Positions 22,962 to 42,600 are shown, counted from the first letter of the stretch. The stretch: 45,395 nt of DNA from an uncultured Dehalococcoidales bacterium (GCA_964354005.1 CAYGYD010000001.1:1-45395), one strand, 5' to 3'. Numbers and translations: made by a program. Notes: generated by a model not told the origin, from the sequence alone.

Positions 22962-22980
22962 CAGTATTATCCTAATGGGT

Positions 22981-24414: not shown

Positions 24415-24532
24415 CTTCTTGTTCTATCGCAGCAATTCTGCGTATACTTTGAGGTAATAGTATCTTAGGGTAGAGCAGTGGTATGCTCCTAGCCGAGTAC
24501 ATTTACCCGAAGGTTCAGGGTCTCAGAAAAAC

Positions 24533-25921: not shown

Positions 25922-25964
25922 ATCTCAACCTCCTATAAGATTGTCAGAAGTGCTCCAATCGGTT

Positions 25965-26246: not shown

Positions 26247-26252
26247 ACAGTC

Positions 26253-27305: not shown

Positions 27306-28234
27306 GTTCTCACCTCCTTTCCTGGAGTACTCTCCGACCGTGATACGGTATTTGACTGTCGAGCTGTCCCGTTCCGGAAATCTTTGAATCTAGAATTGAA
27401 TCCAGTTGGCCGATCAATTTGTTCCATTATGAACAGGACACTGGAACGCAATCCAAACCTAGTGAGAAACCTGTTCGTGGGAATGATCGGCCATTCCGAA
27501 GCGCCGTATAGTAGCAGGGGTTCGATCCGCAACACCCTAAACCCGTGGCTCTGGAATAAGTCCCGCCAATGTTTCACTCTAAAAGACCTCAGGCAATCGA
27601 GGAAGCCAGTATAGCAACCATGACCACTAGGCAACAAAAGTCTTAGTGTTCCGGGGATCGAGCGATTCTCAGCCTGTTGCCTAGCATTCAGCGAAGAAGA
27701 TAGTCGTTTGCCCTTGGTAATGGTAATCTGGGCGTCGTTCTTATTGATTATGCCCAGCAGCCTTTTCATCAGCTTTGTTCCCTTGTTGTAATAGTCAGCA
27801 GGTACCGAAAGGAGAAGCCACAATGCGGTAGGAACTGAAAAAGCGTAGAGGCAGTTCGCCTTTCCAATCCTTCTAAGTTCCTGTAAGGCGCCATCCAGGT
27901 TCTCAATATGCTCAATGACATGATTGGAAAAAATGATGTCAAACTCGTTCGACTCAAAGGGGGCCGCGGTAATATTGCATTTGACAAACTCGATTCCGGT
28001 ATAGTTCTTGACGTTATCACTCTCGTACAAATCGCAAGCAATGACGTGGCCGAGGGTCTGCAAGTAAGGAATCTGAAATCCGTCGCCCGCACCGAATTCT
28101 AGAATCTCAGTCTCAGGTACGACACTCGAATCCGTCGCCCGCAGTTGTCTGATGCAGTCCAAGACGAGTTTGACCTCAGCAGACCGCTTGTTCTGGCGAT
28201 GTTTTCTCTCACCACTTAATGTTCTTGGCCACAT
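27293..28234 (-). CDS. Class I SAM-dependent methyltransferase
   Basis: ILEFGAGDGFQ (motif I) and FDIIFSNHVIEHIENL...LRRIGKANCLYAFSVP, typical of the Methyltransf_11/23 type. Confidence 0.8.
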   Translation of the reverse strand: MWPRTLSGERKHRQNKRSAEVKLVLDCIRQLRATDSSVVPETEILEFGAGDGFQIPYLQTLGHVIACDLYESDNVKNYTGIEFVKCNITAAPFESNEFDIIFSNHVIEHIENLDGALQELRRIGKANCLYAFSVPTALWLLLSVPADYYNKGTKLMKRLLGIINKNDAQITITKGKRLSSSLNARQQAENRSIPGTLRLLLPSGHGCYTGFLDCLRSFRVKHWRDLFQSHGFRVLRIEPLLLYGASEWPIIPTNRFLTRFGLRSSVLFIMEQIDRPTGFNSRFKDFRNGTARQSNTVSRSESTPGKEVRTCQR

Positions 28235-28583
28235 ATTCTCTCCGACTGATGAAAGTCTCCTTGCTTAAGCTGCTTACCGGTAGCAGCCATGGCCCACACG
28301 GGTCTCCTTCACTTTTCGTCGAGCACCTGTCCCTAGTCAAGTCACTTGAGCGATAGAGCATCGTCTTATGCTCCCTCACTTCGTCGTACTCTCGCCTATG
28401 CATCGGCAAACTTCTCACTGCTGGTGCTACCTCGCTAGAATCTGTCGGTGATCAATAACTCGGCGGTTAATTTGGTCGCGATCGGTGCCCAGACTCATTT
28501 TTGCTCCCCTTTCCGCGTATCCACGTCTCCTATCTCCGTTAAAGATGCCAGGGAAATATGCTGGGTTTGATGAGGGTGGTTAC

Positions 28584-29717
28584 TTATCTCCTTTTGCTCT
28601 GTTGGATTTCTTTCATGGTGTCACAGATATAGGTTTTCTGGTCGAGTGTTAAACCGGTACTTGAGGGCAAAAATAGGCCTCGTCTTCCCAGCTCTTCAGC
28701 TATCGGGTAGCTTTCCCCCACAAACAAGCCCATGTTTCGGAAACAGGGCTGAAGATGCATAGGAATAAAGAAAGCCCGGGTTTCAATCCCTTTTTCGGCC
28801 AGCCTAGCCATCAGCTCGTCCCGGGATAGGCCAAACTCATCCCTTATTACGATGGCATACATCCAGTAAACATTCTTTGCCCACTTTTTCTCTGGGGGTG
28901 GAGTTATGCCCGGCAACTCCTGCAATCGTCGATTATAAAACATAGCATTTTGCCGTCTCATTTCAACAAACTCATCAATTCGTTCCAGTTGAGCCAGCCC
29001 CATACCAGCCTGGATGTTAGTCATTCGGTAATTGAAGCCGATATCTGTATGTAAAAATCTCTTTTGAGGGGAGTGAGCCAGGTCTTTGAGGCGCCTAGCT
29101 CGGTCGGCCAACTTTTCATCGTTGGTGACAACCATTCCGCCTTCACCGGTCGTGATAATCTTATTTGCATAGAAGCTGAAGCAGCCCATGTCTCCGATGC
29201 TGCCGGCTTTTCTTCCTTTGTATTCGGCACCATGGACTTCAGCAGCATCTTCAACTATATATAGACTGTATCTCTTGGCAATTTCAATTATGGGGTCCAT
29301 ATCGCAGGGATGTCCATAGAGATGGACGGGCATTATGGCCTTTGTCTTCGGTGTTATCTTCTCCTCAATCTTGGTGACATCAATATTCCAGGTTTCCGGC
29401 TCCGAGTCGACGAGGACTGGCTTGGCGCCAGTGTAAACAATGGGGAAGAGCGAAGCCGACATGGTGAGGGTGGGTACAATCACCTCATCCCCCTCACCGA
29501 TGCCAAGAGACGCCAAAGCCAAATGGAGTGCAGTGGTGCCACTGGTCGTGGTTACCCCGTACTTACAGCCGCAGTAACGAGCAAACTTATCCTCAAATTC
29601 CTCAATGTACTTGCCCTTCGATGAAATCCAGTTAGTCTTAATGCATTCGGTAATGTATTCAAGTTCTCTTTCCCCGGTTAACGGCTCACACACTGAAATC
29701 ATTTGTTTCTTCCTCAT
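28584..29717 (-). CDS. DegT/DnrJ/EryC1/StrS family PLP-dependent sugar aminotransferase (copy 1)
   Basis: TSGTTALHLAL, VHLYGHPCDM, VEDAAEVHGAEYKG and SFYANKIITTGEGG (PLP-lysine region). Start at the internal ATG 29717, because the track start would overlap the upstream gene. Confidence 0.9.
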   Translation of the reverse strand: MRKKQMISVCEPLTGERELEYITECIKTNWISSKGKYIEEFEDKFARYCGCKYGVTTTSGTTALHLALASLGIGEGDEVIVPTLTMSASLFPIVYTGAKPVLVDSEPETWNIDVTKIEEKITPKTKAIMPVHLYGHPCDMDPIIEIAKRYSLYIVEDAAEVHGAEYKGRKAGSIGDMGCFSFYANKIITTGEGGMVVTNDEKLADRARRLKDLAHSPQKRFLHTDIGFNYRMTNIQAGMGLAQLERIDEFVEMRRQNAMFYNRRLQELPGITPPPEKKWAKNVYWMYAIVIRDEFGLSRDELMARLAEKGIETRAFFIPMHLQPCFRNMGLFVGESYPIAEELGRRGLFLPSSTGLTLDQKTYICDTMKEIQQSKRR

Positions 29718-29748
29718 GTTTAATTCCAGTCGTATCTTAACGTTATCC

Positions 29749-31089
29749 TTAGCTACGGTTGGATTTCCGATAATATGGTTGCCTTTCAATTGGAATCCCA
29801 TATCTTAGGTCGCTCTCCAGCCTGCCCAGAGTTATGTTCAATCCATACTCATGGGCCTGGCACAGTGGACAGGTTGGGGGATATTTGAAAATATGTCGGC
29901 GTAGTATATCGCCCAGACTTTCTTCTTTGACACTGCCCAGTCGAAGATGCTTGGAATCGGTCTGAAACCGTGGGTGGGAGGAGAACTCACAATAATACAG
30001 CGCGCCGTAGGGGTTCAGTCCTCTCTTTAACAAGCCGGCGCGGCAAAGAGTCGGTCTTCTCAATCTAGGCAGAAACTGGCTCGACCGTGATTCAAACTCG
30101 CCCTCAGCCATGCCCCGAATATCCAGTTCAACGCTGTCCTTGTTTTGGGTCAGTTCGACAATTTCGGTGCGGATAGCCTCCTTTTCATAGGTGGTGAAGT
30201 CTCTGACCATGCCCATAGCCTCCAGTCTGAAGTGTACCGAGTCCACTTTGAGGTGGCGTCCCAGGTTAACAAAGGCTGCCATTTCATCGTAGTTATCCGG
30301 TTGCAGTATCTGGCTTATGCCTATTTTGACGCTTTTATTCTTTGCCTTCTTCAAGCTCACCAGACTGGCGATATTATCAAGCACCCCGTCGTAGACACCG
30401 TCTGCCTGGGCTCCCTTCGCTTTGGGAAACTGAATATCACTATAGGTTGAAGGATTAGCCCCGTTCACACTGATCCTTATTTGATAGCAATCTAAGATGC
30501 TCTCCTGAGCTTCTTTGTTCATGGCGATGCCGTTGGTATAAAGCCTGGTTCTAAACCCCATTTCATTAGCCCTACGGATATACTCCGGCGTCAGGGGGTT
30601 AATGAAGGGCTCCTTGCCACCGGAGAACCATACCTCTTCGACACCGTTCTGCCGGCATTCATCAAATACTTCTACCACCCTCTCTAGGCTGACCGGCTTT
30701 TCTGCCTTGGTTAATTCAGCATAGTGCCAGCCATCACTGAAGCAGAACTTGCACTGGCACTGGCAGACTGGGCCGGGATGAAACTCGAGGATCAACGGGT
30801 AAACCTCGCTGCCTGAGAGTATCCTGGTCAAGTAATCTTGGTAGTGGGTCATCAAGTCACTGGCTAGAATGGTAAGCCTGGGTGATTTGGAATCCTCGAC
30901 GATGATGCGCTGTAGCCGGCTATCGTCTTGAATAATATCGTAATATGCCAGTAACTCTTCCTTGGGTAGCCCCAGCTTGCTGGCGATTTCCTCGCTAGTG
31001 AAGTCAGGATGGTCGACGAGCTCCTGGACAACGGAGACAAGGCTAGAATGGTATTGCTCCTTGAGATCCGCAAATGTGGTTGCTTTCAT
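29749..31089 (-). CDS. Radical SAM enzyme with N-terminal wHTH-like extension and C-terminal Cys-rich region
   Basis: CQCQCKFC at nt 30742-30765 gives CX3CX2C. FSGGKEPFINP is a GGE-like SAM motif. About 100 aa N-terminal to the core include TSEEIASKLGLPKEEL. There are four C-terminal cysteines (LCRAG, YYCEF, PTCPLC). Its ATG at 31089 overlaps the stop of the upstream GT4 (ATGA). Confidence 0.85.
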   Translation of the reverse strand: MKATTFADLKEQYHSSLVSVVQELVDHPDFTSEEIASKLGLPKEELLAYYDIIQDDSRLQRIIVEDSKSPRLTILASDLMTHYQDYLTRILSGSEVYPLILEFHPGPVCQCQCKFCFSDGWHYAELTKAEKPVSLERVVEVFDECRQNGVEEVWFSGGKEPFINPLTPEYIRRANEMGFRTRLYTNGIAMNKEAQESILDCYQIRISVNGANPSTYSDIQFPKAKGAQADGVYDGVLDNIASLVSLKKAKNKSVKIGISQILQPDNYDEMAAFVNLGRHLKVDSVHFRLEAMGMVRDFTTYEKEAIRTEIVELTQNKDSVELDIRGMAEGEFESRSSQFLPRLRRPTLCRAGLLKRGLNPYGALYYCEFSSHPRFQTDSKHLRLGSVKEESLGDILRRHIFKYPPTCPLCQAHEYGLNITLGRLESDLRYGIPIERQPYYRKSNRS

Positions 31090-32282
31090 CTTGCTACCCC
31101 TTTCTTCTGTTTCGGTGGCTGTTGAAGCGCCAAACATTTCTCGAAGACTTTAAGATACTCATACTTCATAATTTGCCACTGGCAGTTACGGTAGAACTCG
31201 TGGGCGCGTGCAGCCAACGAAACTCTCTTTTCTGGATTTTGGTATAGTTCCACAATTCGGTCAGCCAATGCTTTCTCATCCCCTGGTGGATAGTAGAGAA
31301 TACAGTCATCACTAAAGGTAGCCGTGAGACTGGGGAGAGCACTGGCCACAGAAGTGGTGCCCATGGCAGCATATTCAAACAGTTTGGTGGACACGCCTAT
31401 GTCAAATAACATAGGAGCTATCCCAACATGGGCTCGAGCGATTTTGGAGATAAGTTCTTCGTAGGGGATCAGACCGGTGAAATTGATGTACTCTGTGACT
31501 CTCATATTGCGAGCCAATCTCTCGAGTTCTGGTCGGTATTCTCCCGTCCCGGTCACATCCACTCGTAGCTCCGGGATACTAGGTAACAGCAAAGGGATAG
31601 CCCTGATGACTGTCTGCACTCCATACCTTTCCGTGAGAGTCGTGGCAACGATCAAGCGGAAGTGGTTCTCGTCCTTGGCGGTACCAAGCCGATCAAGGTT
31701 GAAGGAGGTGCTATTGGGTACGTTCAAAATGATGCTCATCTTCTCAACCGGCACGCCGCGGCTGGCCAGCACCTGTTTATAGGGAGCACCATCAGCGACG
31801 ATAACATGATGGGCATATTGGGCGCTTGCCCTCTCAACGAGGCGCAGCAGCCGGGCGCTGATGTGACCGTCATTTATCTTATAGGTCGAGGCAAAAAGCT
31901 GGGGCATATTCTCAAACATGTAGAGGATAACCTTGCAGCCCAGCAGCCTGGGGAAGAGAGTGGCGAAGACTAGGAAGTCAGGCATCGTGTCCACCTCGAT
32001 CACATCGTAGCGCTTCTTCAAAGAGAGCCAGGATAGTGCCAATGAAGCCGCGACGAAGAAGTAGCTGTATTCAAAAAGCTGTCTCAGGATACCCCGCCGG
32101 TGGTGCTCGCCGGGGAGACGGTAGACATTTACCCCACCAATGGTCTCTCTTGCCTTTTCGCCCTTCCTTCTAAGGCAAAGCATGTCCACCTGAAAACCCT
32201 CGCTGACCAGAGTCTCAGCATTCCTTTTCGGGTGCATTAGCCCGGGGTAATGGCTCAGCTTAACAATGCACACTTTTTTCAT
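31086..32282 (-). CDS. GT4 family glycosyltransferase
   Basis: GT-B fold pattern; C-terminal ...GVSTKLFEYAAMGTTSVAS... ATG at 32282 overlaps the upstream stop (ATGA). Confidence 0.8.
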   Translation of the reverse strand: MKKVCIVKLSHYPGLMHPKRNAETLVSEGFQVDMLCLRRKGEKARETIGGVNVYRLPGEHHRRGILRQLFEYSYFFVAASLALSWLSLKKRYDVIEVDTMPDFLVFATLFPRLLGCKVILYMFENMPQLFASTYKINDGHISARLLRLVERASAQYAHHVIVADGAPYKQVLASRGVPVEKMSIILNVPNSTSFNLDRLGTAKDENHFRLIVATTLTERYGVQTVIRAIPLLLPSIPELRVDVTGTGEYRPELERLARNMRVTEYINFTGLIPYEELISKIARAHVGIAPMLFDIGVSTKLFEYAAMGTTSVASALPSLTATFSDDCILYYPPGDEKALADRIVELYQNPEKRVSLAARAHEFYRNCQWQIMKYEYLKVFEKCLALQQPPKQKKGVAR

Positions 32283-33280
32283 GGATTCCTCGGCAAAGTG
32301 GCCTTCCACAGGCCAAGACGTCCCCACCCGTGTGCTGTTTTGTCTCGAACCAGCTCTTCGTAAACCGAGATGATTCTTCGACCGATTTGCCCGGCCTCCA
32401 TATGAGCGATTCTTCCGCGGCCATCAGTCCTCTGTCCCCAACGCACGGCCAGTTCTAGCTTCCGGGCGGCGTCTTCTGGGTCTTGCGAACATAGATAGCA
32501 TCCCGGGGTGTTGCCGATAACTTGAGGCACATCTCCAACTGGCACAGAAACAATCGGTAGGTTGCAAGCCATAGCTTCTTTGATAACCATAGGGGAGCCT
32601 TCCGCATCAGAGACTAGCAGCAATACGTCACAGGCATTCATGTATTTCGGCACCGCCGAAAGTGGCTTGCCCGAAACCAGAATCAGCTCTGCCTCAGGCA
32701 CTCTCGTCTTCAGGTGAGCTATCGCCTCCTGTACAATGTCAAACCTCTTCTCTGGTCGGAAATACTCTCCAGCCCAAAGTACCAGTTTCTTCTCCTGTGG
32801 GAGGTCAAGTTCCTCTCGCGCCTGCTTCTGGGGCATCGGCTTGAAAAGGTCGAAGTCAATCCCACAGGGGATGACGATGGCTTGGCTAAACCGGGCTTTT
32901 TCCTTCATCTCCTCCGACACCACAATCGTTCGGTCGACCAGAGGTGTGATTATCCGGCAGACACGCGCCTGATAGGTGGTGCGGAATACCTCCGGACCGT
33001 GGTGAGTAAGAACCACCGGGTGCAGGAACTGGGCCCGGGCGATCAGTCCGGAAAACGCATAGTGGGCGTGGAGCAGGTCATAGCGCTTCGTCAAAAGCCG
33101 GGCCCAAAGTCGGGGGAATGCCCATAGATAATTAAGAGTGTTTTTTCTACCGTTAACGAAGAATACCTCTAACTCCACGCCTTGCTTTCGCAGGGCTTCC
33201 GCTTGTTCTCGGACAAAGGTACCAAAAGATGGCATCTCGGGTATGGGATACATATTGGTAACAACCAAGACTTTCACCAT
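32279..33280 (-). CDS. GT4 family glycosyltransferase
   Basis: SDAEGSPMVIKEAMACNLPIVSVPVGDVPQVI (E-x7-E region). Confidence 0.85.
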   Translation of the reverse strand: MVKVLVVTNMYPIPEMPSFGTFVREQAEALRKQGVELEVFFVNGRKNTLNYLWAFPRLWARLLTKRYDLLHAHYAFSGLIARAQFLHPVVLTHHGPEVFRTTYQARVCRIITPLVDRTIVVSEEMKEKARFSQAIVIPCGIDFDLFKPMPQKQAREELDLPQEKKLVLWAGEYFRPEKRFDIVQEAIAHLKTRVPEAELILVSGKPLSAVPKYMNACDVLLLVSDAEGSPMVIKEAMACNLPIVSVPVGDVPQVIGNTPGCYLCSQDPEDAARKLELAVRWGQRTDGRGRIAHMEAGQIGRRIISVYEELVRDKTAHGWGRLGLWKATLPRNP

Positions 33281-33406
33281 CTCACTCCTGTCTTATTGAT
33301 ACTCCGGTCATTTCAGACGCAGGGTCTCTGTGCTTCTGACACTCTGGCGACTCTGCTTTCAGGTCTCCTTATTTTCCTCACAGCACTCCGGTTCTATTTC
33401 ACCCGG

Positions 33407-34552
33407 CTAGCTCGTTTTTTCTTGATAGGCAACGTCAACATTTAACTCGCCCCGAGACCGAGTGAAGTCCCGAATGGAATCACAAATGTAGCTCACTTCC
33501 TCCTCAGTCAGCTCGGGGTACATGGGAAGGGAGATTATCTCCTTTGTTATTCTTTCGGTAATTGGCAACCAAGCGTTGCCTCCGTCATACTGGCGCCAGG
33601 CTTCCTGAAGGTGAATGGGGAAGGGATAATGCATCCCGGTGCCGACACCTTTAGTCTCCAGCCAAGCCCGAAGTTCGTCTCGGTACGCAGTTCTGATGAC
33701 ATAGAGATGATAGACATGCTTCGCCCATGACATCTCCTGCGGTGGCACCATTGATGGAGGCAGTAGAGCATCGTAGGCCCTAGCCAGGCTTCGCCGCTTT
33801 TCAATCCACTCATCAAGATGGGGAAGCTTTACCTTTAAAACAGCTGCCTGGATTTCATCGAGGCGACCGTTGATTCCCATGACAGCGTGAACATACTTTG
33901 TGTCTTGGCCATGGTCTCGCAACATCCGGCACCGCTTGGCTATATCAGGGTCGGAAGTGGTAATCATACCCCCCTCACCATAAGCACCTAGGTTCTTGGT
34001 GAAGTAGAAACTAAAGCAACCAGCATCCCCGAGCGAGCCGGTACGCTGTCCCTTGTATTCAGCACCATGAGCTTGGCAGGCATCCTCGATAACCCTCAGG
34101 CGATAGGACCTGGCTAATTCTAGTATTGGGGTCATATCGGCCGGGTGTCCGTAGAGATGCACGGGGATGATGGCTTTAGTCCTCTTGTTTATCATTCTTT
34201 CTACTTGAGAAGGGTCTATGTTATAGGTATTAAGGTCAATGTCAACCAGTACCGGCCGGGCGCCTGTCAGAACAATAGCCTCGACGGTAGCAATGAAGGT
34301 ATGAGAAACCGTAATTACCTCGTCGCCCGGTCCAACCCCACAGGCGAGGAGAGCCAAGTGCAGAGCATCGGTACCTGAGCCTACACCAATGGCAGACTTA
34401 GTGCCACAGTAAGCAGCGAAATCTGATTCAAAGGTCTGAACGTTCTTGCCCAGGAATAGCTGCATACCGTCCAGTGCCTTGCCTATCTCAGCCAGCACTT
34501 CTTCCTTTATACCCTGATATTGTTTTTTCAGGTCAACCAATGGTATACGCAT
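33407..34552 (-). CDS. DegT/DnrJ/EryC1/StrS family PLP-dependent sugar aminotransferase (copy 2, WbpE/WlbC-like context)
   Basis: GSGTDALHLAL, VHLYGHPADM, IEDACQAHGAEYKG and SFYFTKNLGAYGEGG. Overlaps the upstream acetyltransferase by 20 nt. Confidence 0.9.
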   Translation of the reverse strand: MRIPLVDLKKQYQGIKEEVLAEIGKALDGMQLFLGKNVQTFESDFAAYCGTKSAIGVGSGTDALHLALLACGVGPGDEVITVSHTFIATVEAIVLTGARPVLVDIDLNTYNIDPSQVERMINKRTKAIIPVHLYGHPADMTPILELARSYRLRVIEDACQAHGAEYKGQRTGSLGDAGCFSFYFTKNLGAYGEGGMITTSDPDIAKRCRMLRDHGQDTKYVHAVMGINGRLDEIQAAVLKVKLPHLDEWIEKRRSLARAYDALLPPSMVPPQEMSWAKHVYHLYVIRTAYRDELRAWLETKGVGTGMHYPFPIHLQEAWRQYDGGNAWLPITERITKEIISLPMYPELTEEEVSYICDSIRDFTRSRGELNVDVAYQEKTS

Positions 34553-35210
34553 TTGTTATTCTCCCTATCAGGTCACTGTATGGTTTGTCTCTGAGACCGG
34601 TGGTACAGATTAGGTCTCCTATTTTGCAGGCAACCTGTGCCGGATTACCATAGGCAACCACACCAGGTGGGATGTCTTTAGTCACTACACTTCCGGCACC
34701 GATTACCGAGTATTCACCGATGACTACGCGGGGAAGCACGCAGCAGCTGATACCGATCTGAGCCCCCTTCTTGATGCGCGGGCCTTGCATGCACTCTATG
34801 GCATCGGGGCAGCCGGGGTGAACGTCATTAGCTAAGGTAACCCCAGGACCCAGGAAAACATCATCTTCGACGATTGTGAATTGGGTGACATAAACATTGT
34901 TGTGAATCTTGACGTTATTTCCAATTATGCAGCCGTAGTCGATAATGGAGTTACTCCAGATGCGCAAGTTGTTTCCGATAATATTCTCCTCCCTGATAAT
35001 CACATTGTGGCCGGTCTCCAGATTTTGTCCAATGCGGCTACCCCGGTAGATAACGGTGCCAGAACGAATGTGAGCACCGGCACCAATAACCAGCGGGTGA
35101 CCGTCACCGCGACTTGGGGTATAGCCAAGACGTACACCATCGTCAATTATGGCTTTCCCCCCCAGTCTCACTATCTGACTATTATCTTCTGGTTCGATAA
35201 AAGACTCCAT
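34533..35210 (-). CDS. Left-handed beta-helix (hexapeptide-repeat) sugar N-acetyltransferase (WbpD/WlbB/QdtC-like)
   Basis: Repeated [LIV]G-x4 hexapeptides (IGNNLRIWSNSIIDYGCIIGNNVKIHNNVYV...). Start at the internal ATG 35210, downstream of the upstream gene's stop at 35218. Confidence 0.85.
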   Translation of the reverse strand: MESFIEPEDNSQIVRLGGKAIIDDGVRLGYTPSRGDGHPLVIGAGAHIRSGTVIYRGSRIGQNLETGHNVIIREENIIGNNLRIWSNSIIDYGCIIGNNVKIHNNVYVTQFTIVEDDVFLGPGVTLANDVHPGCPDAIECMQGPRIKKGAQIGISCCVLPRVVIGEYSVIGAGSVVTKDIPPGVVAYGNPAQVACKIGDLICTTGLRDKPYSDLIGRITNAYTIG

Positions 35211-35217
35211 TTTTCCC

Positions 35218-36276
35218 TCACTTCTCAACGAATTGTGGTTGTCCTCGCTTGATATCGTCCGCGAGTGATTTTGTCTTAACTCGCTGCCCACCGTTCGCCA
35301 GTGATATATCGGCTGCTTCCAGAATGCTGACTACTTTAAATCCAGCCCGGCCGTCACTCCTTGGTCTCTTACCTTTGACTATACACTCTAGGAAATGGCT
35401 GCATTCCAGCTTGAGAGGCTCAGCGTTGGAGATAAAGGGTATGGTCACATCGCCATAGCGGTAGTTGGGCGGCCAAGCCGAGAACCCATTGCTGCCATCG
35501 CTGGATATAACGAGTCCCTTATCGTAGATATGTATTTTCTCCGTTTCGGAAACATCATCATATACCGCCATTTTTTCGCTACCGACGATGGTGATCTCTC
35601 GGATCTTGCGTGGGTGGAGCCAGCTCACATGTATGTGACCCATGGTGCCGTTAGCGAACAGCAACTCGAGGTAAGCTATATCACAGACCTTGGGGTCTAC
35701 ATGGTGACTACCGCGGGCACTTACGGCGATAGGCTCCTTGTTCAACAACGAAAGCATAATGCTTATATCATGGGGAGCTAGGTCCCAAAGAACGTTTACA
35801 TCAGGCCGGAACAGGCCAAGGTTAAGTCGGTGGGCATCAATGCTATAAATCTCGCCCAGCTCACCACTGTCCACCAGTTTTCTCAGTAAATCCACCGCCG
35901 GATGATATTCATAAGTGTGTCCCACCATGAGCACCAGGTTCCGCTTCTCCGCCAGTTCAATAAGTTCCCAAGCTTTATGGCTATTGGTAGTCATCGGTTT
36001 TTCTATCAGGACATGCTTATTACGGAGTAACGCCTCCTTTGCCAGTTTATAGTGTGTATCGACCGGAGTGACTATTACCACCGCATCCACGCCCTCCTCT
36101 AGGAGGTCTCCGAAATCGGTGGTTGTTTGTACATAGGGATATTGAGTTCGAACCTGCTGAAGCTTATGCTCATCAAGGTCACAAACTGTGGTCAGCTTGG
36201 CCTCAGACAACTCGTGATAGTTCCTGATGTGCTTTGGCCCCCAGTAACCACAACCCACAACGCCAATATTAACCAT
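35218..36276 (-). CDS. Gfo/Idh/MocA family NAD-dependent sugar oxidoreductase (WbpB/WlbA-like)
   Basis: MVNIGVVGCGYWGPKH Rossmann N-terminus and EKP motif (VLIEKPM). The internal ATG 36276 is preceded by GGAAGGAGGAG. Confidence 0.85.
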   Translation of the reverse strand: MVNIGVVGCGYWGPKHIRNYHELSEAKLTTVCDLDEHKLQQVRTQYPYVQTTTDFGDLLEEGVDAVVIVTPVDTHYKLAKEALLRNKHVLIEKPMTTNSHKAWELIELAEKRNLVLMVGHTYEYHPAVDLLRKLVDSGELGEIYSIDAHRLNLGLFRPDVNVLWDLAPHDISIMLSLLNKEPIAVSARGSHHVDPKVCDIAYLELLFANGTMGHIHVSWLHPRKIREITIVGSEKMAVYDDVSETEKIHIYDKGLVISSDGSNGFSAWPPNYRYGDVTIPFISNAEPLKLECSHFLECIVKGKRPRSDGRAGFKVVSILEAADISLANGGQRVKTKSLADDIKRGQPQFVEK

Positions 36277-36298
36277 CTTGCTCCTCCTTCCCGATTTG

Positions 36299-36997
36299 TC
36301 AGCTGCCATCTTGGCTGAGAATCGTGCGCACAGTTAGCAGTGCAATCTTCGCATCCAAGAGTGCTGACTGCCTGTTTATGTAGTCAATATCAAGACGTAC
36401 CATGTCCTCAAAAGAGAGACTCTTCCGCCCGGAGACCTGCCAAAGGCCGGTGATACCTGGTTTGACACGAAGCCTCTCCCGATGCCAGTCCTTATACATT
36501 CGCACCGCAAAAGGGATATCCGGTCGGGGACCAATGAATGACATCTCTCCCTTCAGTATATTGAATAGTTGTGGAAGCTCATCCAGATTAGTCTTCCTCA
36601 GCAGAGTGCCAAACCTCGTCACCGACATCCCATCAGCTTTGTAGATGCTCTGTCCATTCTCGTCCACTCGGTAAGGCGCATTTTCGAGGATGTACCGGCA
36701 GAGATATGACTTATATTCACCGTCGTCATTATCTATAGGCATGCACCGAAACTTGTAACATTTGAAGCGGTGCCCGTCCTTCCCAACTCGCTCTTGTACA
36801 AATATCGGATTTCCCGGCGAATCCACCCTGATCACGACGGCAATCAGGATCAGGATGGGGAGGGAAGCAGCTATGGCCAGGAGTGCCAGCAGGCGGTCCA
36901 GAATTCCCTTCCAGTTGGGATAGCCGAACTGGTGATAGCCCCTTTCCCTCTCCCTTGCCTCCCTAGCAACCGGAATCTGCTTCTCGGCCAGTTTCAT
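36299..36997 (-). CDS. Initiating polyprenyl-phosphate sugar-phosphate transferase (small PglC/WbaP-C-type bacterial sugar transferase)
   Basis: One N-terminal re-entrant helix; RVGKDGHRFKCYKFRCM, DELPQLFNILKGEMSFIGPRP, PGITGLWQVSGR. Its ATG overlaps the upstream stop (ATGA at 36994-36997). Confidence 0.9.
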   Translation of the reverse strand: MKLAEKQIPVAREARERERGYHQFGYPNWKGILDRLLALLAIAASLPILILIAVVIRVDSPGNPIFVQERVGKDGHRFKCYKFRCMPIDNDDGEYKSYLCRYILENAPYRVDENGQSIYKADGMSVTRFGTLLRKTNLDELPQLFNILKGEMSFIGPRPDIPFAVRMYKDWHRERLRVKPGITGLWQVSGRKSLSFEDMVRLDIDYINRQSALLDAKIALLTVRTILSQDGS

Positions 36998-38328
36998 CGC
37001 ACCCCCACACTCTGTTTGGCCAATACCTCCGGCCCATGGCGACCAATGCCCTCGTAAACGATATTTGCCTCAGTCACTTTGTCGGGGTCAAGAAGGTTAC
37101 GACCATCGATAAGAATGGGATGCTTCATTGAAGAGGCTATCCTTACCATGTCCAGTTCTTTGAATTCATCCCAGTCAGTAACGAGTATCAAGGCATCGCT
37201 CCCGACAGCTACCTGATAAGCGTCAGAAAAGTAGGTCACCTGAGGCATGAGTCTAGCTGCCATCGGCATAGCCAATGGATCGTAGGCTTTAACTTGGCAG
37301 CCTTCCTGCTGCAAAAGGGAGATGATTGATAGTGAAGTCGCCTCCCGCATATCATCCGAATTCGGCTTAAAGGAGAGACCGAGAATACCGATAGTCTTGC
37401 CCTTCAGGGAACCGAGCAGCCGGCGCAGTTTTCCTATGGCTATGTGCGGCTGGCGCTGGTTAATCTTCTGTACAGCACGGACCAATGGCAATGGAACCCG
37501 CCGGCTCTTGGCCATATGGATGAGCCCCCTGACATCCTTGGGAAGGCAACTGCCTCCCCAACCTAATCCAGCACCTAGACAGCCCTCACCACACCGAGGG
37601 TCCATCCCCATTACCTTAGCTATTGTCGTAACGTCGACGCCATATGCGTCGCAAAGCAAGGCTATTTCATTGATGAAGCTGATTCTGGTGGCGAGGAAAA
37701 CATTCGAAGCGTACTTTGACATCTCGGCGGTTTTGTTGTCACATATGATTGTCGGGGAATCCAGTGGCGCGTAGAGTTCAGCCACTGCCTTGCCCACGTT
37801 TCGGTCGGATGACCCGACTACGATCCTAGCAGGATGCATGAAGTCAAAGACGGCTATGCCTTCGCGCAGAAATTCAGGGTTAGACGCCACAGGGAAAAGG
37901 TGACTGCTACGACCGGAACAGGCAAGTATTTTGGATACGAGGTCGGCGGTGCCTACTGGCACTGTGCTCTTGATGGCAACAACCATCGGCTCACTGGCGG
38001 CTTCGGCGATGCTTCTGGCTGCTGAGCGTACGTATTTCAAGTCGGGTTTTCCGTTGGTGCTGGATGGCGTACCTACAGTTATAAAAGCAAACTCAGCACC
38101 CGATAACCCCTGTGCATAGTCGCTAGTTATGCTTAATCTTCCCTTCGCCCAGTTGCTCTGCCAAAGCTCAGGAAGGTCTTGCTCACTAACCGGCATTATC
38201 CCGCCTTCCAGAGCGTTCAACTTGTCCGAATCAATCTCCACCAGAGTTACCTTATTACCAAGCTCGGCAAAACAAACTGCCGTAACTAAGCCCACATATC
38301 CAGCCCCGATAACACTAATATTTCTCAT
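36994..38328 (-). CDS. UDP-glucose/GDP-mannose dehydrogenase family nucleotide-sugar 6-dehydrogenase
   Basis: MRNISVIGAGYVGLVTAVCFAELG and the catalytic-Cys motif GGSCLPKD. 444 aa. Confidence 0.9.
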   Translation of the reverse strand: MRNISVIGAGYVGLVTAVCFAELGNKVTLVEIDSDKLNALEGGIMPVSEQDLPELWQSNWAKGRLSITSDYAQGLSGAEFAFITVGTPSSTNGKPDLKYVRSAARSIAEAASEPMVVAIKSTVPVGTADLVSKILACSGRSSHLFPVASNPEFLREGIAVFDFMHPARIVVGSSDRNVGKAVAELYAPLDSPTIICDNKTAEMSKYASNVFLATRISFINEIALLCDAYGVDVTTIAKVMGMDPRCGEGCLGAGLGWGGSCLPKDVRGLIHMAKSRRVPLPLVRAVQKINQRQPHIAIGKLRRLLGSLKGKTIGILGLSFKPNSDDMREATSLSIISLLQQEGCQVKAYDPLAMPMAARLMPQVTYFSDAYQVAVGSDALILVTDWDEFKELDMVRIASSMKHPILIDGRNLLDPDKVTEANIVYEGIGRHGPEVLAKQSVGVR

Positions 38329-38366
38329 GAATCTGCATGCCTCCTACCTACCATTCAAGCTATCTA

Positions 38367-40940
38367 CTACTCTTCACTCCCCTGTGCATGGGCGAAAGCA
38401 CTCACCACATGGGGGTCAAAACGCTGCCCTGAATCGGCAATAAGCTTCTGTACTGCCATTTCAGGGTCTATTGTTCCTTGAGGTGATGGTCCTGAAGTCA
38501 TGGCGTCGAAGGTATCAGCGACAGCCAGTATTCTCGCTCCTAATGGGATGTTGTCACCACTGGCGCTAAAGAGGCAATCGGCACCGTCATATCTCTCATA
38601 TCTGTGCAAAATCAAGATTAACGCTGGTGAAAGAAATTCAATCGCTGACAACGCTTTCCACACCAGGTTGAAGCGCGCTCTAAGGACGATGGCTTTATCA
38701 AGAGTGGGTGCTACCATTTGCTCCATCGCGTCCTCAGGAGATAAAACAAGCCCTAGGTCTTTGAGCAGGGCCGCGTAGTGAAGTGCCTGCCGTTCATTTC
38801 TTGTTAGCCCAAGTTTGTCGGCAATAACCAGAGCATACCTGGCCACTCGTTGGGCACTATCTATGTCAAAGAGGTATCGGAGATGCATCGACCGGGCAAT
38901 CTCCCGGCTAATGGCTAGAATAGCCTCCAATGTGGCGAACTGGGCAACTTCTTGCCGCAGCAGTTGGTCTTGTTGAGTTTCTAGCCGGTTGCTAAGGTCA
39001 TCTGCTAGGAACAGAGAACGGTTGCAGAGCACCCGGAGTTCCTGGATTTTGTAACCAAGGTTCTCCAGACTCTCCCGAATGGCCATCGGCATTTGCTTGA
39101 AAGTCGACGATAACAGCTGGCGCGTGCTGTCAAGCTGTGCCTGCGCCTCCTGCTTACTGGTCTCTGCCGCAGACAGCAGGGCATTGATCTCCTCCCCCGA
39201 ACTCTGCCATCTCCTCGGGATAGATATTGAGAAGGTAGTACCCTGCCCTACCTCGCTCTCAATACTCAGCCTGCCTCCTAGGCCTTGAACCAGTACCTTG
39301 GCCAGGTAGAGGTCGTTCCGCTTTTCGCTGGCGAGCATTCCTTCCAGTTGACCCTGGAAGAGCATACTCAGCTCCCGGTGGGCGATAATGTGGTTGCGGT
39401 TAATCAGTTCTATGGTTACGAAGCTTTTACTCTTCTCGTATACACGTATATGTACCCTGTCACCCGGCATGCTGCCCTCGATTTCGCTTCTCAAGGCGTA
39501 GAATAGAGCCTGAGTAAGGCCCCTTCCGTCCACCACGAGCTGGCCCACGTCTTCAACCCCCTCGCTGTCAACCTCAATTCTTCGCTGTATTGCCAGCTCT
39601 TTTGTCTGCTTCATAATCCAGTCAACTGTGTTTCTGAGGTCTACTTCATCGATAATAGCACTGCCGGTGACCCACTCATCTCTTGTCAGACGACGGAGCT
39701 CCTCTGCGACACCCACCAGCTGACTCATGTTTTCCTTAAAGGTTTTCAGTTTGTTGCGTTGTTCAGCAGTAAAATCCTCCGCCTGCACCGGGTCTACCCC
39801 GTCCAGGTAATCCTTTATTCCGGTGATGGGAATCTCAAGTTCTCTGGCGAGGAAGGTAACCCAGGCTAACACTCCCTGCAAAGTTTTCTGCTCTTCCCGG
39901 TGTGCCTGGAGTACTCCACGGGCTAGACTGAGTTCTGGTTCAAGGTCATTTTGGCCAAGGTCAAAACAATAGTTACTTCCTGGGAAGTGTCTCAGGTGAC
40001 TCATCTGTTCAGCAGCAGCCTCACTGACTTCAACGTGATGGCGAAACTTTCGCCTTGTGTTAGAAACTACCGCCGCGCGAATGCTCATGATTGGACTTGG
40101 TTCCTTCTGGCCCAATTGACTTTCATATTCTATGTAACCTCTCTCTAGGTCTTCGCGTTTGTACAGGGTCCTTATTCGACTATCAAAATCAGTGATGAGC
40201 CTCTGGCAAAGAAGTCTTGCCTTCGGACTTGTACTGATAATCACGAAATTATCGCCACCAATATGTCCTACCAAATCGTCTGGATTACCGAATAATCGGA
40301 CTGATTCACACAGTATCGCAGCAACAAGCCGAATAGCGCGGTCGCCCTGAGCGAAACCATACACCTTGTTGAAAGTCTTAAGATTATCCAGGTCAACATA
40401 GATAGCGGCGAAGGTCCCGTTCCGCTCAATTAGGTTCGTAATCTCACTATTTACCTGGCTCAGGTTCGATAATCCGGTTAGCGGATTTACGTTTTCAACC
40501 CGTTCTCTTTGCTTCAAGCAAGTCTCGACCAGAGCCACAACCTCCTTGGGATCGAAGGGTTTTGTAACATAATTATCAGGCCCATCGACGCCTTCAGCTG
40601 TCCTTTTCTTGCTCTCAGTACCGACAACTATGAGTGGAATATGACTCGCTTGTTGCAACTCCTTCAGCCGCCAGCAGATATCAGTGTTTTCGAGGTCAAA
40701 AACTTCGTCGTCAAGAAGAATTATGTCGGGTCTCTCTGTGGAGGCCTTTATAAGTGCTTCAAGCCCGTTCCGCGCTGTTATGACGCCGAGATTGGCATGA
40801 GCCAAGTTAACCTCCAGAATGCCAAGCACCTCTGGGTCATGGTCGATCACCAGTACAGTTCTTTTCCTCGGCGTCGATGGTTCGCCCGCACTTGCTATCA
40901 TTCTTGCCCTAGGTCCAGTCTGAGGTATTGTAATAATCAT
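38367..40940 (-). CDS. Multidomain signalling protein: REC - degenerate GGDEF (GGDNF) - pseudo-histidine-kinase (no phospho-His) - degenerate HD-GYP
   Basis: - REC (aa ~27-147): VLVIDHD, ILLDD, YVTKPF.
- GGDEF fold (aa ~150-320): the signature reads GGDNF (nt 40245-40259) and there is no RxxD I-site.
- DHp-like helix FLARELEIPITGI has Arg where the H-box His should be.
- HATPase-like region lacks the N and G1 boxes but keeps GLGGRLSIESEVGQGTTFSISIP.
- HD-GYP-like C-terminus reads SAQRVA (not HSxRVA), LKDLG (not LHDIGK) and HRYERYDGADC (no GYP). Confidence 0.8.
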   Translation of the reverse strand: MIITIPQTGPRARMIASAGEPSTPRKRTVLVIDHDPEVLGILEVNLAHANLGVITARNGLEALIKASTERPDIILLDDEVFDLENTDICWRLKELQQASHIPLIVVGTESKKRTAEGVDGPDNYVTKPFDPKEVVALVETCLKQRERVENVNPLTGLSNLSQVNSEITNLIERNGTFAAIYVDLDNLKTFNKVYGFAQGDRAIRLVAAILCESVRLFGNPDDLVGHIGGDNFVIISTSPKARLLCQRLITDFDSRIRTLYKREDLERGYIEYESQLGQKEPSPIMSIRAAVVSNTRRKFRHHVEVSEAAAEQMSHLRHFPGSNYCFDLGQNDLEPELSLARGVLQAHREEQKTLQGVLAWVTFLARELEIPITGIKDYLDGVDPVQAEDFTAEQRNKLKTFKENMSQLVGVAEELRRLTRDEWVTGSAIIDEVDLRNTVDWIMKQTKELAIQRRIEVDSEGVEDVGQLVVDGRGLTQALFYALRSEIEGSMPGDRVHIRVYEKSKSFVTIELINRNHIIAHRELSMLFQGQLEGMLASEKRNDLYLAKVLVQGLGGRLSIESEVGQGTTFSISIPRRWQSSGEEINALLSAAETSKQEAQAQLDSTRQLLSSTFKQMPMAIRESLENLGYKIQELRVLCNRSLFLADDLSNRLETQQDQLLRQEVAQFATLEAILAISREIARSMHLRYLFDIDSAQRVARYALVIADKLGLTRNERQALHYAALLKDLGLVLSPEDAMEQMVAPTLDKAIVLRARFNLVWKALSAIEFLSPALILILHRYERYDGADCLFSASGDNIPLGARILAVADTFDAMTSGPSPQGTIDPEMAVQKLIADSGQRFDPHVVSAFAHAQGSEE

Positions 40941-41458
40941 AATTTGGTCAAGTTAAAACAAGGTCAGAGCCTGGTTAGAAAAAGGTTAGAATCACCCACC
41001 GCGTTGAAGAATGGTCCTCGAAAAGCAGGGAGGGGGTTAGTTCGTCTACAGCAACGATGGACGCTTCGGAACTATGAACCCTACCAAAAGACGATTCAGG
41101 TTTGATTCCTTCTGACTTCTTCTCCCGTGTCTTCCGCGTGCCGTGGGCTGTCCAAGAACTACGTGGGATTGCCGCTAGAATTAAGTAGACTTACTTATTG
41201 ACCCACCTGCTGAACATCAGGATAATCCTTATAGAAACACGATTTTCAGCCGTTCTCTTGGTTCATAGGCTCACCGGTAGATATCAGGGAAGATTGTTGG
41301 CCGCCGATAAAGGGCTTCATCTCTGCTCTTTCTGACACCGCGTTGAATCGCGGTTAGAACATTGTTCTAGAAAATGGAACCTTCTCAAGGTTGCTTTAAT
41401 GGTGTAATATCGCGGTACCGAACTTCACAAATTGAGAGGAAAAGGTAAGAAAAGTCAC

Positions 41459-41487: not shown

Positions 41488-41494
41488 TAGATAA

Positions 41495-41700: not shown

Positions 41701-41838
41701 AAAGTAGGTCTGGTCTATAGGAAGGAGAAGCGGCATAGAGCCAAGTCGTTAGACTATTATCGACATTGTTAGGTTAGCAGGGGAGCTTTGAACTATTATC
41801 CGTAAGTGGTCACTTGGGTAATAGGGAGCTAGTAGTGA

Positions 41839-41869
41839 AACCGACCTCTGAAGGTCGGTTTTTTCTTTT
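41839..41869 (+). terminator. Strong intrinsic terminator immediately 5' of the response-regulator gene
   Basis: AACCGACC / tctgaa / GGTCGGTT followed by TTTTCTTTT, with an A-tract upstream of the stem. Confidence 0.8.
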
Positions 41870-41904
41870 GCTAAGCGAGTGGGAGTCGGAGTGGAGGTAA
41901 TACG

Positions 41905-42600
41905 ATCAAAGAGAAGATACTGGTTATCGATGACGACACTGAGTTCTTAAATTTGACCAAGATATGGCTTGAAAATGCTGGCTATGAAGTGATGACGGCA
42001 CAGGACGGGATTGTCGGTTTGCGTTGTGCTTATAGCTCTCGCCCAAAGCTGGTGCTACTCGATGTCAATATGCCCGAGGCAAACGGATGGGAAGTCTCTC
42101 GCCGGATTCGGGAGATGAGTGATGTTGCTATCATCATGGTAACCGTTAACCGGCAGAAAGATGACATCCTAAGAGGATTTGGTGCTGGTGCTGATGACTA
42201 TGTTATCAAGCCAATTGACTTCCCTGTTTTGCTCGCCCGGGTGGGTGCTGTCCTGCGCCGGTGCCAAGATGCTGCTGAAGATAGTGACCCTGGCGTTTTC
42301 CATCAGGGTGAAATAACTGTAGATTGGAAAAGCCGCCAGGTTTACGCCAGGCAACAATTAGTAAAGCTTTCGCCGACCGAGTTTAGGCTCCTGTCATGCT
42401 TGATCAAGAACCGTGGCTGGGTGGTGACTCACGAACAGCTTCTGCGCAAGGCGTGGGGACCAAACTACGTTGGTGACCGGTCTTTTGTCAAGCTGTACGT
42501 CAGATATCTGCGTCAGAAGTTAGAGAAGGACCCGCAGCATCCGAAGTTGATTGTGACCGAGCGAGGCATTGGTTATCGCTTTTCAATAGAGTCGAACTAG
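41905..42600 (+). CDS. OmpR/PhoB-family response regulator (REC + winged helix); start codon apparently non-canonical (ATC)
   Basis: The track ORF (TTG 41953) lacks the beta1 strand. The same frame is open from 41875 and encodes IKEKILVIDDDTEFLN upstream. GGAGG (41893-41897) lies 7 nt before ATC 41905, and no in-frame ATG/GTG/TTG exists between 41875 and 41953. C-terminal LSPTEFRLL...ERGIGYRF winged helix. Confidence 0.8.
   Translation: MKEKILVIDDDTEFLNLTKIWLENAGYEVMTAQDGIVGLRCAYSSRPKLVLLDVNMPEANGWEVSRRIREMSDVAIIMVTVNRQKDDILRGFGAGADDYVIKPIDFPVLLARVGAVLRRCQDAAEDSDPGVFHQGEITVDWKSRQVYARQQLVKLSPTEFRLLSCLIKNRGWVVTHEQLLRKAWGPNYVGDRSFVKLYVRYLRQKLEKDPQHPKLIVTERGIGYRFSIESN

Follow-up and report, generated by a model that had tools for sequence, protein, structure and literature searches.

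A predicted non-catalytic four-domain signalling protein at the head of a glycan operon in uncultured Dehalococcoidia

Pseudoenzyme signalling adaptors and two-component systems (TCS) under riboswitch control are already-known kinds of regulator, and both bear on the locus described here, a 45,395-nucleotide stretch of DNA from an uncultured Dehalococcoidales bacterium (GCA_964354005.1 CAYGYD010000001.1:1-45395, hereafter the window). In this stretch, a gene for a four-domain protein with receiver, GGDEF, histidine kinase-like and HD-GYP-like folds precedes a 20-kb glycan cluster. Dehalococcoidia are abundant in the subsurface and in sediment, are mostly uncultured, and have unusual cell envelopes; to our knowledge, almost nothing is known about the regulation of their surface glycans or their use of cyclic di-GMP (c-di-GMP). 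Among the closest described systems, PelD, YdaK, and PssE are membrane proteins with a dead GGDEF domain, encoded inside exopolysaccharide operons, that exert post-translational control and use an RxxD I-site; all GGDEF-type receptors known to us use the I-site. RetS of Pseudomonas likewise regulates exopolysaccharide. BcsE, the cellulose secretion regulator of E. coli, is a non-catalytic adaptor with a degenerate receiver-GGDEF 'GIL' module, encoded by the leader cistron of a polysaccharide operon; its c-di-GMP site is an RxxD I-site, while the substrate P-loop and the alpha1 helix have been lost (PMC7439463). Crystallography and biochemistry have established DvhD of Desulfovibrio vulgaris as a degenerate HD-GYP receptor of c-di-GMP, in which stalk helices transmit the binding signal (PMC13090378). 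In the CmrRST system of Clostridioides difficile, a c-di-GMP riboswitch occupies the leader of the operon for OmpR-type regulator(s) and a kinase (PMC8844915). Set against these systems, the window protein is best explained, with moderate confidence, as a non-catalytic, nucleotide-sensing adaptor that is co-expressed with glycan genes. What is new is the union, in one chain conserved across a class, of three dead enzyme folds and an atypical receiver.

The longest open reading frame (ORF) of the gene comprises 857 codons at 38367..40940 on the minus strand. Because the N-termini of homologues align at M14 and a conserved -10 box overlaps the ATG at 40940, translation probably starts at M14, the ATG at 40901, to give a product of 844 amino acids; residue numbers used throughout are those of the 857-amino-acid ORF. 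An earlier, sequence-only reading of the window had placed the start at 40940, which is probably wrong on both grounds; every coordinate that it gave is correct. The domain order it had proposed, receiver (REC)-GGDEF-histidine kinase (HK)-HD-GYP, is borne out by Pfam matches and by the modules of an AlphaFold2 model. Response_reg (PF00072) matches residues 29-138 with 40.6 bits against a cut-off of 30.2, GGDEF matches residues 152-241 with 54 bits over just the first 93 of 161 profile positions, HATPase_c matches residues 472-576 with 26.5 bits against a cut-off of 26.4, and the HD-GYP profile HD_5 (PF13487) matches residues 695-845 with 79 bits; HisKA was not detected in the protein. The model, made from 94 homologues with a mean predicted local distance difference test (pLDDT) of 76.8, comprises six modules (REC, GGDEF, DHp-like, CA, coiled coil, and HD-GYP), of which REC and HD-GYP reach a pLDDT of about 90. 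The GGDEF fold is complete in it (residues 150-326) and includes a beta-hairpin insert, which accounts for the short Pfam match. Foldseek comparison with the PDB returned WspR, DgcR, and PleD as top matches of the N-terminal half, and DivL (4q20, target-normalised TM-score 0.59) and HK853 (0.58) for the kinase-like part, with RetS also matched. No transmembrane segment was found in the four-domain protein or in the neighbouring HK, searches with Pfam and NCBIfam profiles found no DNA-binding domain in the four-domain protein, and no NCBIfam equivalog attains its cut-off on it. The coding sequence and its modules are arranged as follows:

38367..40901, minus strand: coding sequence of the four-domain protein, counted from M14; the longest ORF reaches 40940
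40494..40859, minus strand: atypical receiver, residues 28-149, with D33-H34-D35, D77, G107-T108, and K127
39963..40493, minus strand: GGDEF fold without cyclase chemistry, residues 150-326, with GGDNF and no RxxD; the most conserved module
39684..39908, minus strand: DHp-like helical hairpin, residues 345-419, with AlphaFold2 helices 345-381 and 392-419 and with R366
39210..39650, minus strand: CA/HATPase-like domain, residues 431-577, without N, G1, and G2 boxes
38889..39194, minus strand: long coiled-coil stalk, residues 583-684, with AlphaFold2 helices 583-610 and 619-684
38379..38864, minus strand: HD-GYP fold without metal ligands, residues 693-854, with S695, K727-D728, R780-Y781-E782, and D788-C789-L790

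Residue conservation was counted in an alignment of 94 family members, and the receiver quintet in 92 of them. Alignment to PhoP and PleD places the acidic pair of the receiver at D33-H34 in the window protein, where the second CheY-type Asp is replaced, and G107 aligns with the Thr of PhoP at the Thr/Ser position at the end of beta4, next to T108. D77 (84/94) and K127 (93/94) are canonical. With H34 and G107 replacing two of the five residues of phospho-chemistry, the receiver is not the intact domain it had been taken for. Across the family, the first acidic column holds Asn in 41 and Asp in 39 members, the second Ser in 34, Ala in 16, His in 15, and Asp in 15, and the Thr/Ser column holds Gly in 48 and Ser in 37. 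The complete quintet is found in 13-14 of 92 members, 85% missing at least one residue, and the quintet-complete members mostly bear xGDDF; the orthologues of L094 and L009 pair GGDDF with a DDD pocket. The closest likeness of the receiver is to those of the OmpR family (PhoP, E 1.7e-17).

In the GGDEF-like domain, the signature reads GGDNF at nucleotides 40245-40259 (G228-F232, aligned to the GGEEF of PleD) and RxxD is absent, just as first read. In the alignment to PleD, the I-site position is occupied by NPDD, within a loop, RLFGNPDD, that is four residues longer. Position 4 of the motif, Asn in the window protein, is Lys in 41, Asn in 35, Asp in 16, and Glu in one of the 94 members. The metal-binding residues D183 and D185 are present in the window protein, D183 in 51/94 members; the guanine-contact residues N191 (PleD N335) and D200 (PleD D344) occur in 93/94 and 92/94, and the P-loop and alpha1 region of the substrate site is highly conserved across the family. 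The equivalent of PleD R446, read from the sequence, is Ser in the window protein (GSN instead of GRN).

The kinase-like and HD-GYP-like modules are equally bare of catalytic motifs, and what had been said of them stands. R366 occupies the phospho-acceptor position, aligned to H260 of HK853 and to the Tyr of DivL; in the family this H-box position carries Arg in 37, Gly in 15, Lys in 12, and Glu in 12 members, and His in none of the 94. The H-box helix has conserved E367 and P371, and also W360. The ATP-lid boxes are degenerate, with E486 at the N-box Asn (a column with Glu in 75 of 94 members and Asn in none), N514-R-N-H-I at G1, N-D-L-Y-L at G2, and none of the glycines. In the HD-GYP-like domain, S695 takes the place of the first His, K727-D728 that of HD, R780-Y781 that of HH, and D788-C789-L790 that of GYP; four His ligands are missing. 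The replacements are themselves conserved, K727 in 89/94, D728 in 94/94, and S837 in 86/94 members, and the HHE column reads H/Y-R-Y-E.

A homologue search spanning 5.8 billion proteins yielded about 100 full-length homologues of 829-912 amino acids at 40-72% identity, and those with a source name are all from Chloroflexota, Dehalococcoidia or Dehalococcoidales metagenome-assembled genomes (MAGs). A scan of genome contigs gave six true family members among abundant generic HD-GYP matches. Mean pairwise identity by module is 0.58 for the GGDEF-like domain, 0.53 for REC and for the HD-GYP-like domain, and 0.52 for the coiled coil; lower means were obtained for the CA-like (0.41) and DHp-like (0.38) modules, the linker (0.31), and the N-terminus (0.24). 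The FGNPDD loop is conserved across the family, and L638, N640, and R641 of the coiled-coil stalk are invariant in its alignment. The same substitutions recur in 94 homologues of 38-71% identity and so do not stem from chance or sequencing error, and since the degeneracies recur family-wide and the replacement residues are conserved in turn, they point to a selected pseudoenzyme and not to decay. Judged by this conservation, the apparently non-catalytic folds are under purifying selection. The proposal that the protein is not an enzyme is therefore upheld, the catalytic motifs of the cyclase, kinase, and phosphodiesterase modules being gone family-wide and the folds conserved. It had also been remarked that no characterised protein of this arrangement was known; likewise, no description of the architecture, or of the circuit set out below, was found in the literature, where searches on the four-domain architecture, on c-di-GMP in Dehalococcoidia, and on c-di-GMP-II riboswitches in Chloroflexi gave nothing relevant.

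The nearest outgroup of the N-terminal half is a REC-GGDDF clade at 33-38% identity, and the Dehalococcoidia family looks like a further-decayed offshoot of this possibly enzymatic clade. Both share NPLTGLPG, the ERGYI insert, the GH-GGD-F context, and fusion to HD-GYP or HisKA-HATPase, but the REC-GGDDF clade has canonical receivers, GGDDF, and the metal Asp, and the proteins examined have recognisable HisKA or HD domains. Its members (P0102-P0120), from Myxococcota, Elusimicrobiota, Chloroflexota, and Desantisbacteria, are uncharacterised and widespread; they combine canonical receivers with GHIGGDDF, NPLTGLPG, and the ERGYI beta-hairpin insert, are fused to HD-GYP or PAS/GAF-HisKA-HATPase, and may represent an active variant cyclase family. 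Three distant long matches (L015, L017, and L022) turned out not to share the architecture of the window protein, being of the type GAF-HK-GAF-HD-GYP and having their motifs intact; Eisenbacteria and Gemmatimonadales also have HK-GAF-HD-GYP proteins whose motifs are intact.

Compared with the described systems, the window protein shares the REC-GGDEF fold and domain order of PleD, WspR, and DgcR, but these have GG(D/E)EF, an RxxD I-site, and the full receiver quintet, none of which it possesses. BcsE resembles it in the degenerate receiver and GGDEF domains and in the operon leader position, whereas the pseudo-HK, coiled coil, and pseudo-HD-GYP go beyond BcsE and a sequence relationship is undetectable. 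Moreover, the pattern of loss is the opposite of that in BcsE and PelD, since the window protein lacks the I-site and keeps the P-loop region and the guanine-contact residues; unlike PelD, YdaK, and PssE, it is neither membrane-bound nor RxxD-bearing. The HD-GYP-like domain has DvhD as its best PDB sequence match (E 1.3e-09), V-cGAP3 and PA4781 also being aligned. As in DvhD (PDB 9RBZ/9RC0), the HD and HH metal ligands are replaced and a helical stalk lies ahead of the domain, although DvhD is a membrane receptor and the window protein is soluble. The top matches of the HK-like module, DivL of Caulobacter and RetS, also have a DHp-CA fold whose phospho-acceptor is replaced or unused; DivL has Tyr at the acceptor, while the window protein has Arg (Arg, Gly, Lys, or Glu in the family) and has lost all ATP-lid boxes.

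The genes that follow the four-domain gene constitute a glycan cluster, which is connected to it by a short junction:

38329..38366, minus strand: junction to the UDP-sugar dehydrogenase gene, 38 bp, with a GGAGG ribosome-binding site and no terminator
18256..38328, minus strand: glycan cluster of 20 kb, on the same strand and downstream of the four-domain gene

The cluster encodes a UDP-sugar 6-dehydrogenase (36994-38328), a polyprenyl glycosylphosphotransferase (36299-36997), a WbpB-like 3-dehydrogenase, a hexapeptide acetyltransferase, and a DegT aminotransferase, together with GT4 and GT2 transferases, a radical SAM enzyme, a methyltransferase, a Wzy-like polymerase, and a Wzx-like flippase. 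In view of the established WbpA/B/E/D pathway, the set of WbpB-like 3-dehydrogenase, acetyltransferase, and aminotransferase suggests a 2,3-diacetamido uronic acid sugar. Further along (28584-31137, minus strand), the radical SAM enzyme, a second DegT aminotransferase, and the methyltransferase suggest an unusual modified sugar. That the four-domain gene ends 38 bp before the dehydrogenase gene, on the same strand and without a terminator, agrees with the first description, and the spacer holds the GGAGG ribosome-binding site. Same-strand sugar genes follow the four-domain gene in 11/11 complete homologous loci, most of them with the same dehydrogenase, transferase, and WbpB/D/E-like block, and a terminator-like structure was found at none of the 11 junctions between the gene and the sugar genes. 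The proposed tie to the glycan locus is confirmed by these 11 loci and their terminator-free junctions.

Upstream of the four-domain gene lies a conserved promoter, with the following elements:

40939..40991, minus strand: promoter with four direct repeats at 11-bp phasing and a -10 box
40984-40991, minus strand: box TTCTAACC
40973-40980, minus strand: box TTCTAACC
40962-40969, minus strand: box CTCTGACC
40951-40958, minus strand: box TTTTAACT
40939-40944, minus strand: -10 box AATTAT, six nucleotides beyond the last box
41342..41370, minus strand: second, weaker cluster of TTCTAAC-like boxes, about 400 nucleotides upstream of the gene

The sequence TTCTAACCTTTTTC is common to all nine intergenic regions between the divergent response regulator (RR) gene and the adaptor gene. 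Their boxes, TTCTAACC, TTCTAACT, CTCTGACA, and TTCTAACT (box type TTCTAACY), keep an exact 11-bp phasing and are followed after N6 by TAYTAT in 9/9 loci, 56-135 nucleotides ahead of the start codon. The alignment of the nine loci has 27 invariant columns, even though the encoded proteins share just 43-61% identity with the window protein. OmpR/PhoB-type activation has as its hallmark phased direct repeats that overlap the -35 region, and this layout is present here, at about 11-bp phasing. The divergent OmpR-family RR is the obvious candidate for binding the four boxes.

A scan of metagenome contigs for the array alone retrieved 42 loci, among them 35 arrays with at least 600 bp of downstream sequence, and in 30 of these 35 a four-domain homologue lies within 80-300 bp downstream. 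Among the exceptions, a UDP-sugar dehydrogenase gene is directly downstream in L099 and L122, and a sugar nucleotidyltransferase gene in L089. Since these arrays precede sugar genes directly, the array is read as the glycan-operon promoter and the four-domain gene as its usual but dispensable leader cistron. This bears on the suggestion that the protein is the dedicated regulator of the operon, which does not hold up: it has no DNA-binding domain, the promoter is of OmpR type and faces a divergent RR, and it drives sugar genes in loci without the gene. The transcriptional regulator of the operon appears, from the layout of the locus, to be the neighbouring RR and not the four-domain protein. 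Two further arrays stand before other genes: that of L129 (2409-2448) precedes groES-groEL, and a five-box array in L128 (1467-1506) precedes a gene for a secreted repeat protein, which suggests that the RR regulon reaches beyond the glycan operon in some lineages. Box clusters similar to the second, upstream one occur in L002, L007, and L013. An exact 12-nucleotide repeat, CACCGCGTTGAA, is also found at 40997-41008 and at 41336-41347, 339 nucleotides apart, both copies adjoining GGTTAGAA-type boxes; the upstream cluster and the repeats may be autoregulatory or enhancer-like sites.

The RR belongs to a divergent two-gene operon whose leader contains a riboswitch:

41773..41855, plus strand: c-di-GMP-II aptamer (Rfam RF01786, 65.3 bits against a gathering score of 53.5, E 1.7e-12)
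41837..41872, plus strand: intrinsic terminator, a perfect 10-bp hairpin and U-run, whose 5' arm is the 3' part of the aptamer
41905..42600, plus strand: OmpR-family RR, canonical, with DDD pocket, D, T, K, and winged helix
42636..44063, plus strand: soluble HK, canonical, with H-box SHELLSPLT and intact HATPase

The window aptamer is full-length (model positions 1-84) and lies 50 nucleotides ahead of the RR start. Nine further syntenic copies (58-68 bits) occupy the same intergenic position in related Dehalococcoidia loci, the aptamer helices show compensatory changes at 9 of 24 pairs, and the aptamer overlaps the terminator in 10/10 riboswitch loci. Because aptamer and terminator are mutually exclusive, the riboswitch is predicted to be an ON switch. 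The likeness to CmrRST lies in the place of a c-di-GMP riboswitch in the leader of a TCS operon; CmrRST differs in belonging to another phylum, in being phase-variable, and in having no link to a pseudoenzyme or to a four-box glycan operon. The riboswitch is a subclade feature, not a family-wide one, since it is absent from most loci at the gathering score; in L001, L004, and L005, it is absent even at E<=1. Nor does it always precede the RR: of the ten riboswitch loci, seven have the RR next, L100 has the HK alone, L092 has a secreted beta-helix protein, and in L091 the contig ends. In L092 (8407-10541), the riboswitch stands before a gene for a 635-amino-acid secreted right-handed beta-helix protein, and the orientation relative to the four-domain gene is again divergent. 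Five of 7 riboswitch-positive full-length proteins (L092, L094, L100, L123, and L009) retain the GYP Tyr, against 0 of 13 riboswitch-negative ones, a lead only, given that the loci are phylogenetically non-independent and that the window protein has lost this Tyr; the riboswitch-positive, Tyr-keeping set may merely be a less-decayed subclade.

Several smaller observations concern the same leader and operon. In most riboswitch-positive loci, a conserved TTGACA-N17-TATnAT promoter lies 75-100 nucleotides ahead of the aptamer. The corresponding TTGACA of the window stands at 41459, so that about 280 additional nucleotides intervene in this region (41459-41772, plus strand), for which no Rfam match was found. 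They include another terminator-like hairpin and its U-run (41606-41640) as well as a perfect tandem repeat, two copies of TTTGTCTTGAA. The repeat (41679-41700) was considered as an RR site and set aside in favour of the TTCTAACY array, as it is confined to the window and absent ahead of the aptamer at the other riboswitch loci. As for the start of the RR gene (window 41893-41907, plus strand), none of the codons ATG, GTG, and TTG occurs from the preceding stop at 41872 up to the DDD acidic pocket; an ATC at 41905, seven nucleotides past a GGAGG, stands at the position of the ATG or GTG of orthologues (MKEKILV...) and is apparently either a non-canonical start or a base error. The divergent RR, at 63-67% identity, and the HK are found in 8/8 homologous loci with upstream flank; in the metagenome scan, a divergent RR and HK accompany 16 of 22 arrays. 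A recent paralogy of the pseudo-kinase with this HK was rejected, since BLASTP gives just 32 bits over the last 32 residues.

Taken together, these elements suggest the following circuit. Binding of c-di-GMP to the riboswitch would permit transcriptional read-through, so that RR and HK are made; phosphorylated RR would then bind the four boxes, and the adaptor would be transcribed along with the glycan genes. The four-domain protein would be a soluble, probably dimeric, non-catalytic adaptor, encoded by the leader cistron of a nucleotide-sugar, Wzx/Wzy operon, which would neither synthesise nor degrade c-di-GMP nor autophosphorylate, and would act by binding. The substrate half-site of its GGDEF domain (N191, D200, and the P-loop region) would most likely bind a guanine nucleotide; it is the most probable ligand site because the guanine contacts are near-invariant and the known c-di-GMP sites are absent. 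From there, the dimeric DHp-like, CA-like, and coiled-coil stalk, with its invariant N640-R641, would relay the signal to the HD-GYP-like domain, which would serve as the partner contact surface. That the protein represents a novel class of receptor for guanine nucleotides (GTP, (p)ppGpp, or c-di-GMP), in which a dead GGDEF substrate half-site signals through a pseudo-kinase/coiled-coil stalk to a dead HD-GYP output, is a speculative and rather improbable extension. By analogy with BcsE and PelD, the partner could tentatively be sought in the glycan-assembly or nucleotide-sugar machinery; the leader position, co-transcription, and these precedents favour it, whereas the variable downstream gene sets, the soluble nature of the protein, and the missing I-site disfavour it. 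The neighbouring HK or RR, in a feedback like that of DivL, RetS, or CpxP, is a conceivable partner, hardly less probable than that machinery, though neither reaches even odds.

A number of observations weigh against the adaptor reading. With NPDD in place of the I-site, the known c-di-GMP site of GGDEF domains is absent. When the canonical contacts of DvhD were mapped through an ungapped alignment, seven of the eight were mappable, Y523 falling outside the aligned block; L577, K582, Y621, R650, Y652, and E668 correspond to P745, A750, C789, P818, P820, and S837, so that only M646 (= M814) is kept, 1/7, and the family consensus lacks the rest. The riboswitch was found in 10 of 40 scanned sources, and the adjacency of the TCS is not universal, L092 having the secreted protein in that place and L100 only the HK. 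Downstream gene sets vary by locus (L002, L005, and L008), which argues against any one conserved glycan partner. Of the folds, the DHp-like one is conserved least (0.38), and this speaks against a specific docking site for the well-conserved RR. The proposed binding of the RR to the boxes draws on its adjacency and conservation, and we infer the ligand, the partner, and all steps after expression. Given the members with a complete quintet and xGDDF, part of the family may still be enzymatic, and a GGDDF variant is active in GSU1937 (PMC8835794).

The alternatives differ mainly in what they ask of the receiver and the pseudo-kinase. The sequence-only reading had pictured a phosphorylation-controlled scaffold or cyclic-dinucleotide receptor as the possible dedicated regulator of the operon. 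With D77 as the phosphorylation site and the neighbouring HK as one conceivable donor, a dead c-di-GMP domain would take up the messenger and the protein would switch the operon on. D77 (84/94) and K127 (93/94) are indeed conserved, D33, D35, and T108 are present in the window protein, the receiver is most like those of the OmpR family (PhoP), and the gene adjoins both an HK and the operon; the c-di-GMP riboswitch points to the use of this messenger at the locus, and degenerate HD-GYP and GGDEF receptors are known. Nevertheless, phosphorylation control sits poorly with a receiver in which H34 replaces the Mg-binding Asp and G107 the Thr/Ser, and with a family in which the quintet is complete in just 13-14 of 92 members and 85% miss at least one residue. 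As for the rest of that proposal, scaffold remains apt, folds being kept and catalysis lost, but receptor is undercut by the absent I-site and by the DvhD contacts, of which 6 of 7 mappable ones are changed family-wide. A direct switch on the operon also lacks a DNA-binding domain to act through, while an OmpR-type four-box promoter stands beside an RR and drives sugar genes in loci without the gene. We therefore hold this explanation as a whole to be distinctly unlikely. An auxiliary regulator of the TCS deserves more attention, although we still lean against it: an RR-induced protein that feeds back on HK or RR, or whose receiver competes for phosphoryl groups, and so sets the level of phosphorylated RR. 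The pseudo-kinase might associate with the HK, in the manner of the RetS-GacS DHp heterodimer, or with the RR receiver, in the way that DivL binds phosphorylated DivK. The divergent RR and HK accompany the gene in 8/8 flanked loci and 16/22 metagenome arrays, the HK-like module is closest to DivL with RetS also matched and with E367, P371, and W360 conserved, and the first product of an RR-dependent promoter fits a feedback design; moreover, L099, the sole long-flanked array locus without the gene, is also without an adjacent TCS. Against this, the DHp-like (0.38) and CA-like (0.41) modules show the lowest conservation of all folds, while the RR retains 63-67% identity between loci, the pseudo-kinase is not paralogous to the neighbouring HK (32 bits over a C-terminal segment only), the receiver quintet is incomplete in most members, and the gene occurs in L092 without an adjacent TCS and in L100 without an adjacent RR.

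Two further readings are less likely still. In one, the GGDNF domain or some other module would still be weakly active or have an altered catalytic activity, for example with a different nucleotide product, and the protein would be a true second-messenger enzyme. D183, D185, N191, and D200 are all present in the window protein, GSU1937 is active with GGDDF (PMC8835794), and the wider clade has GHIGGDDF with canonical receivers; yet motif position 4 carries Asn and not an acid (Lys in 41 and Asn in 35 family members), D183 is kept in 51/94, Ser stands at PleD R446, the kinase is without His and ATP-lid boxes, and the HD-GYP domain is without its four His ligands, which leaves a residual enzyme very improbable. 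In the other, a decaying multi-domain gene would simply be carried as a functionless relic at the operon head. The loss of all catalytic motifs and the two array-bearing loci without the gene would suit it, but about 100 lineages have an intact full-length ORF (38-72% identity), the dead GGDEF (0.58) and HD-GYP (0.53) folds are conserved on a par with or above REC (0.53), and the replacements are themselves conserved (K727, S837, and the FGNPDD loop); a relic is hardly credible.

Should the protein be such a guanine-nucleotide receptor, it and the riboswitch would let Dehalococcoidia control glycans at two tiers, with RNA acting on transcription and a protein acting post-translationally or by feedback. 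The conservation pattern, in which the substrate site is kept and the I-site lost, points to a binding mode unlike that of known GGDEF-type receptors. The pseudoenzyme theme of BcsE, PelD, DvhD, DivL, and RetS would be extended to a single-chain, class-wide protein, and the locus offers a testable circuit of riboswitch, TCS, four-box promoter, and glycan operon. In addition, the promoter and the riboswitch can be used as annotation markers for glycan loci in MAGs.

Two further genes of the window lie outside this circuit. Near the glycan cluster, an ORF at 10710-15602 on the minus strand encodes a 1630-amino-acid protein with five He_PIG Ig-like repeats and malectin, cadherin-like, PKD, and purple-acid-phosphatase N-terminal domains; this large protein probably resides at the cell surface or is associated with the S-layer. 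Right after the HK gene, on the opposite strand (44210-45007, minus strand), there is a stand-alone ORF of 265 amino acids, whose sole match is to the membrane sensor domain MASE3 with 27.2 bits, below the Pfam cut-off of 31.

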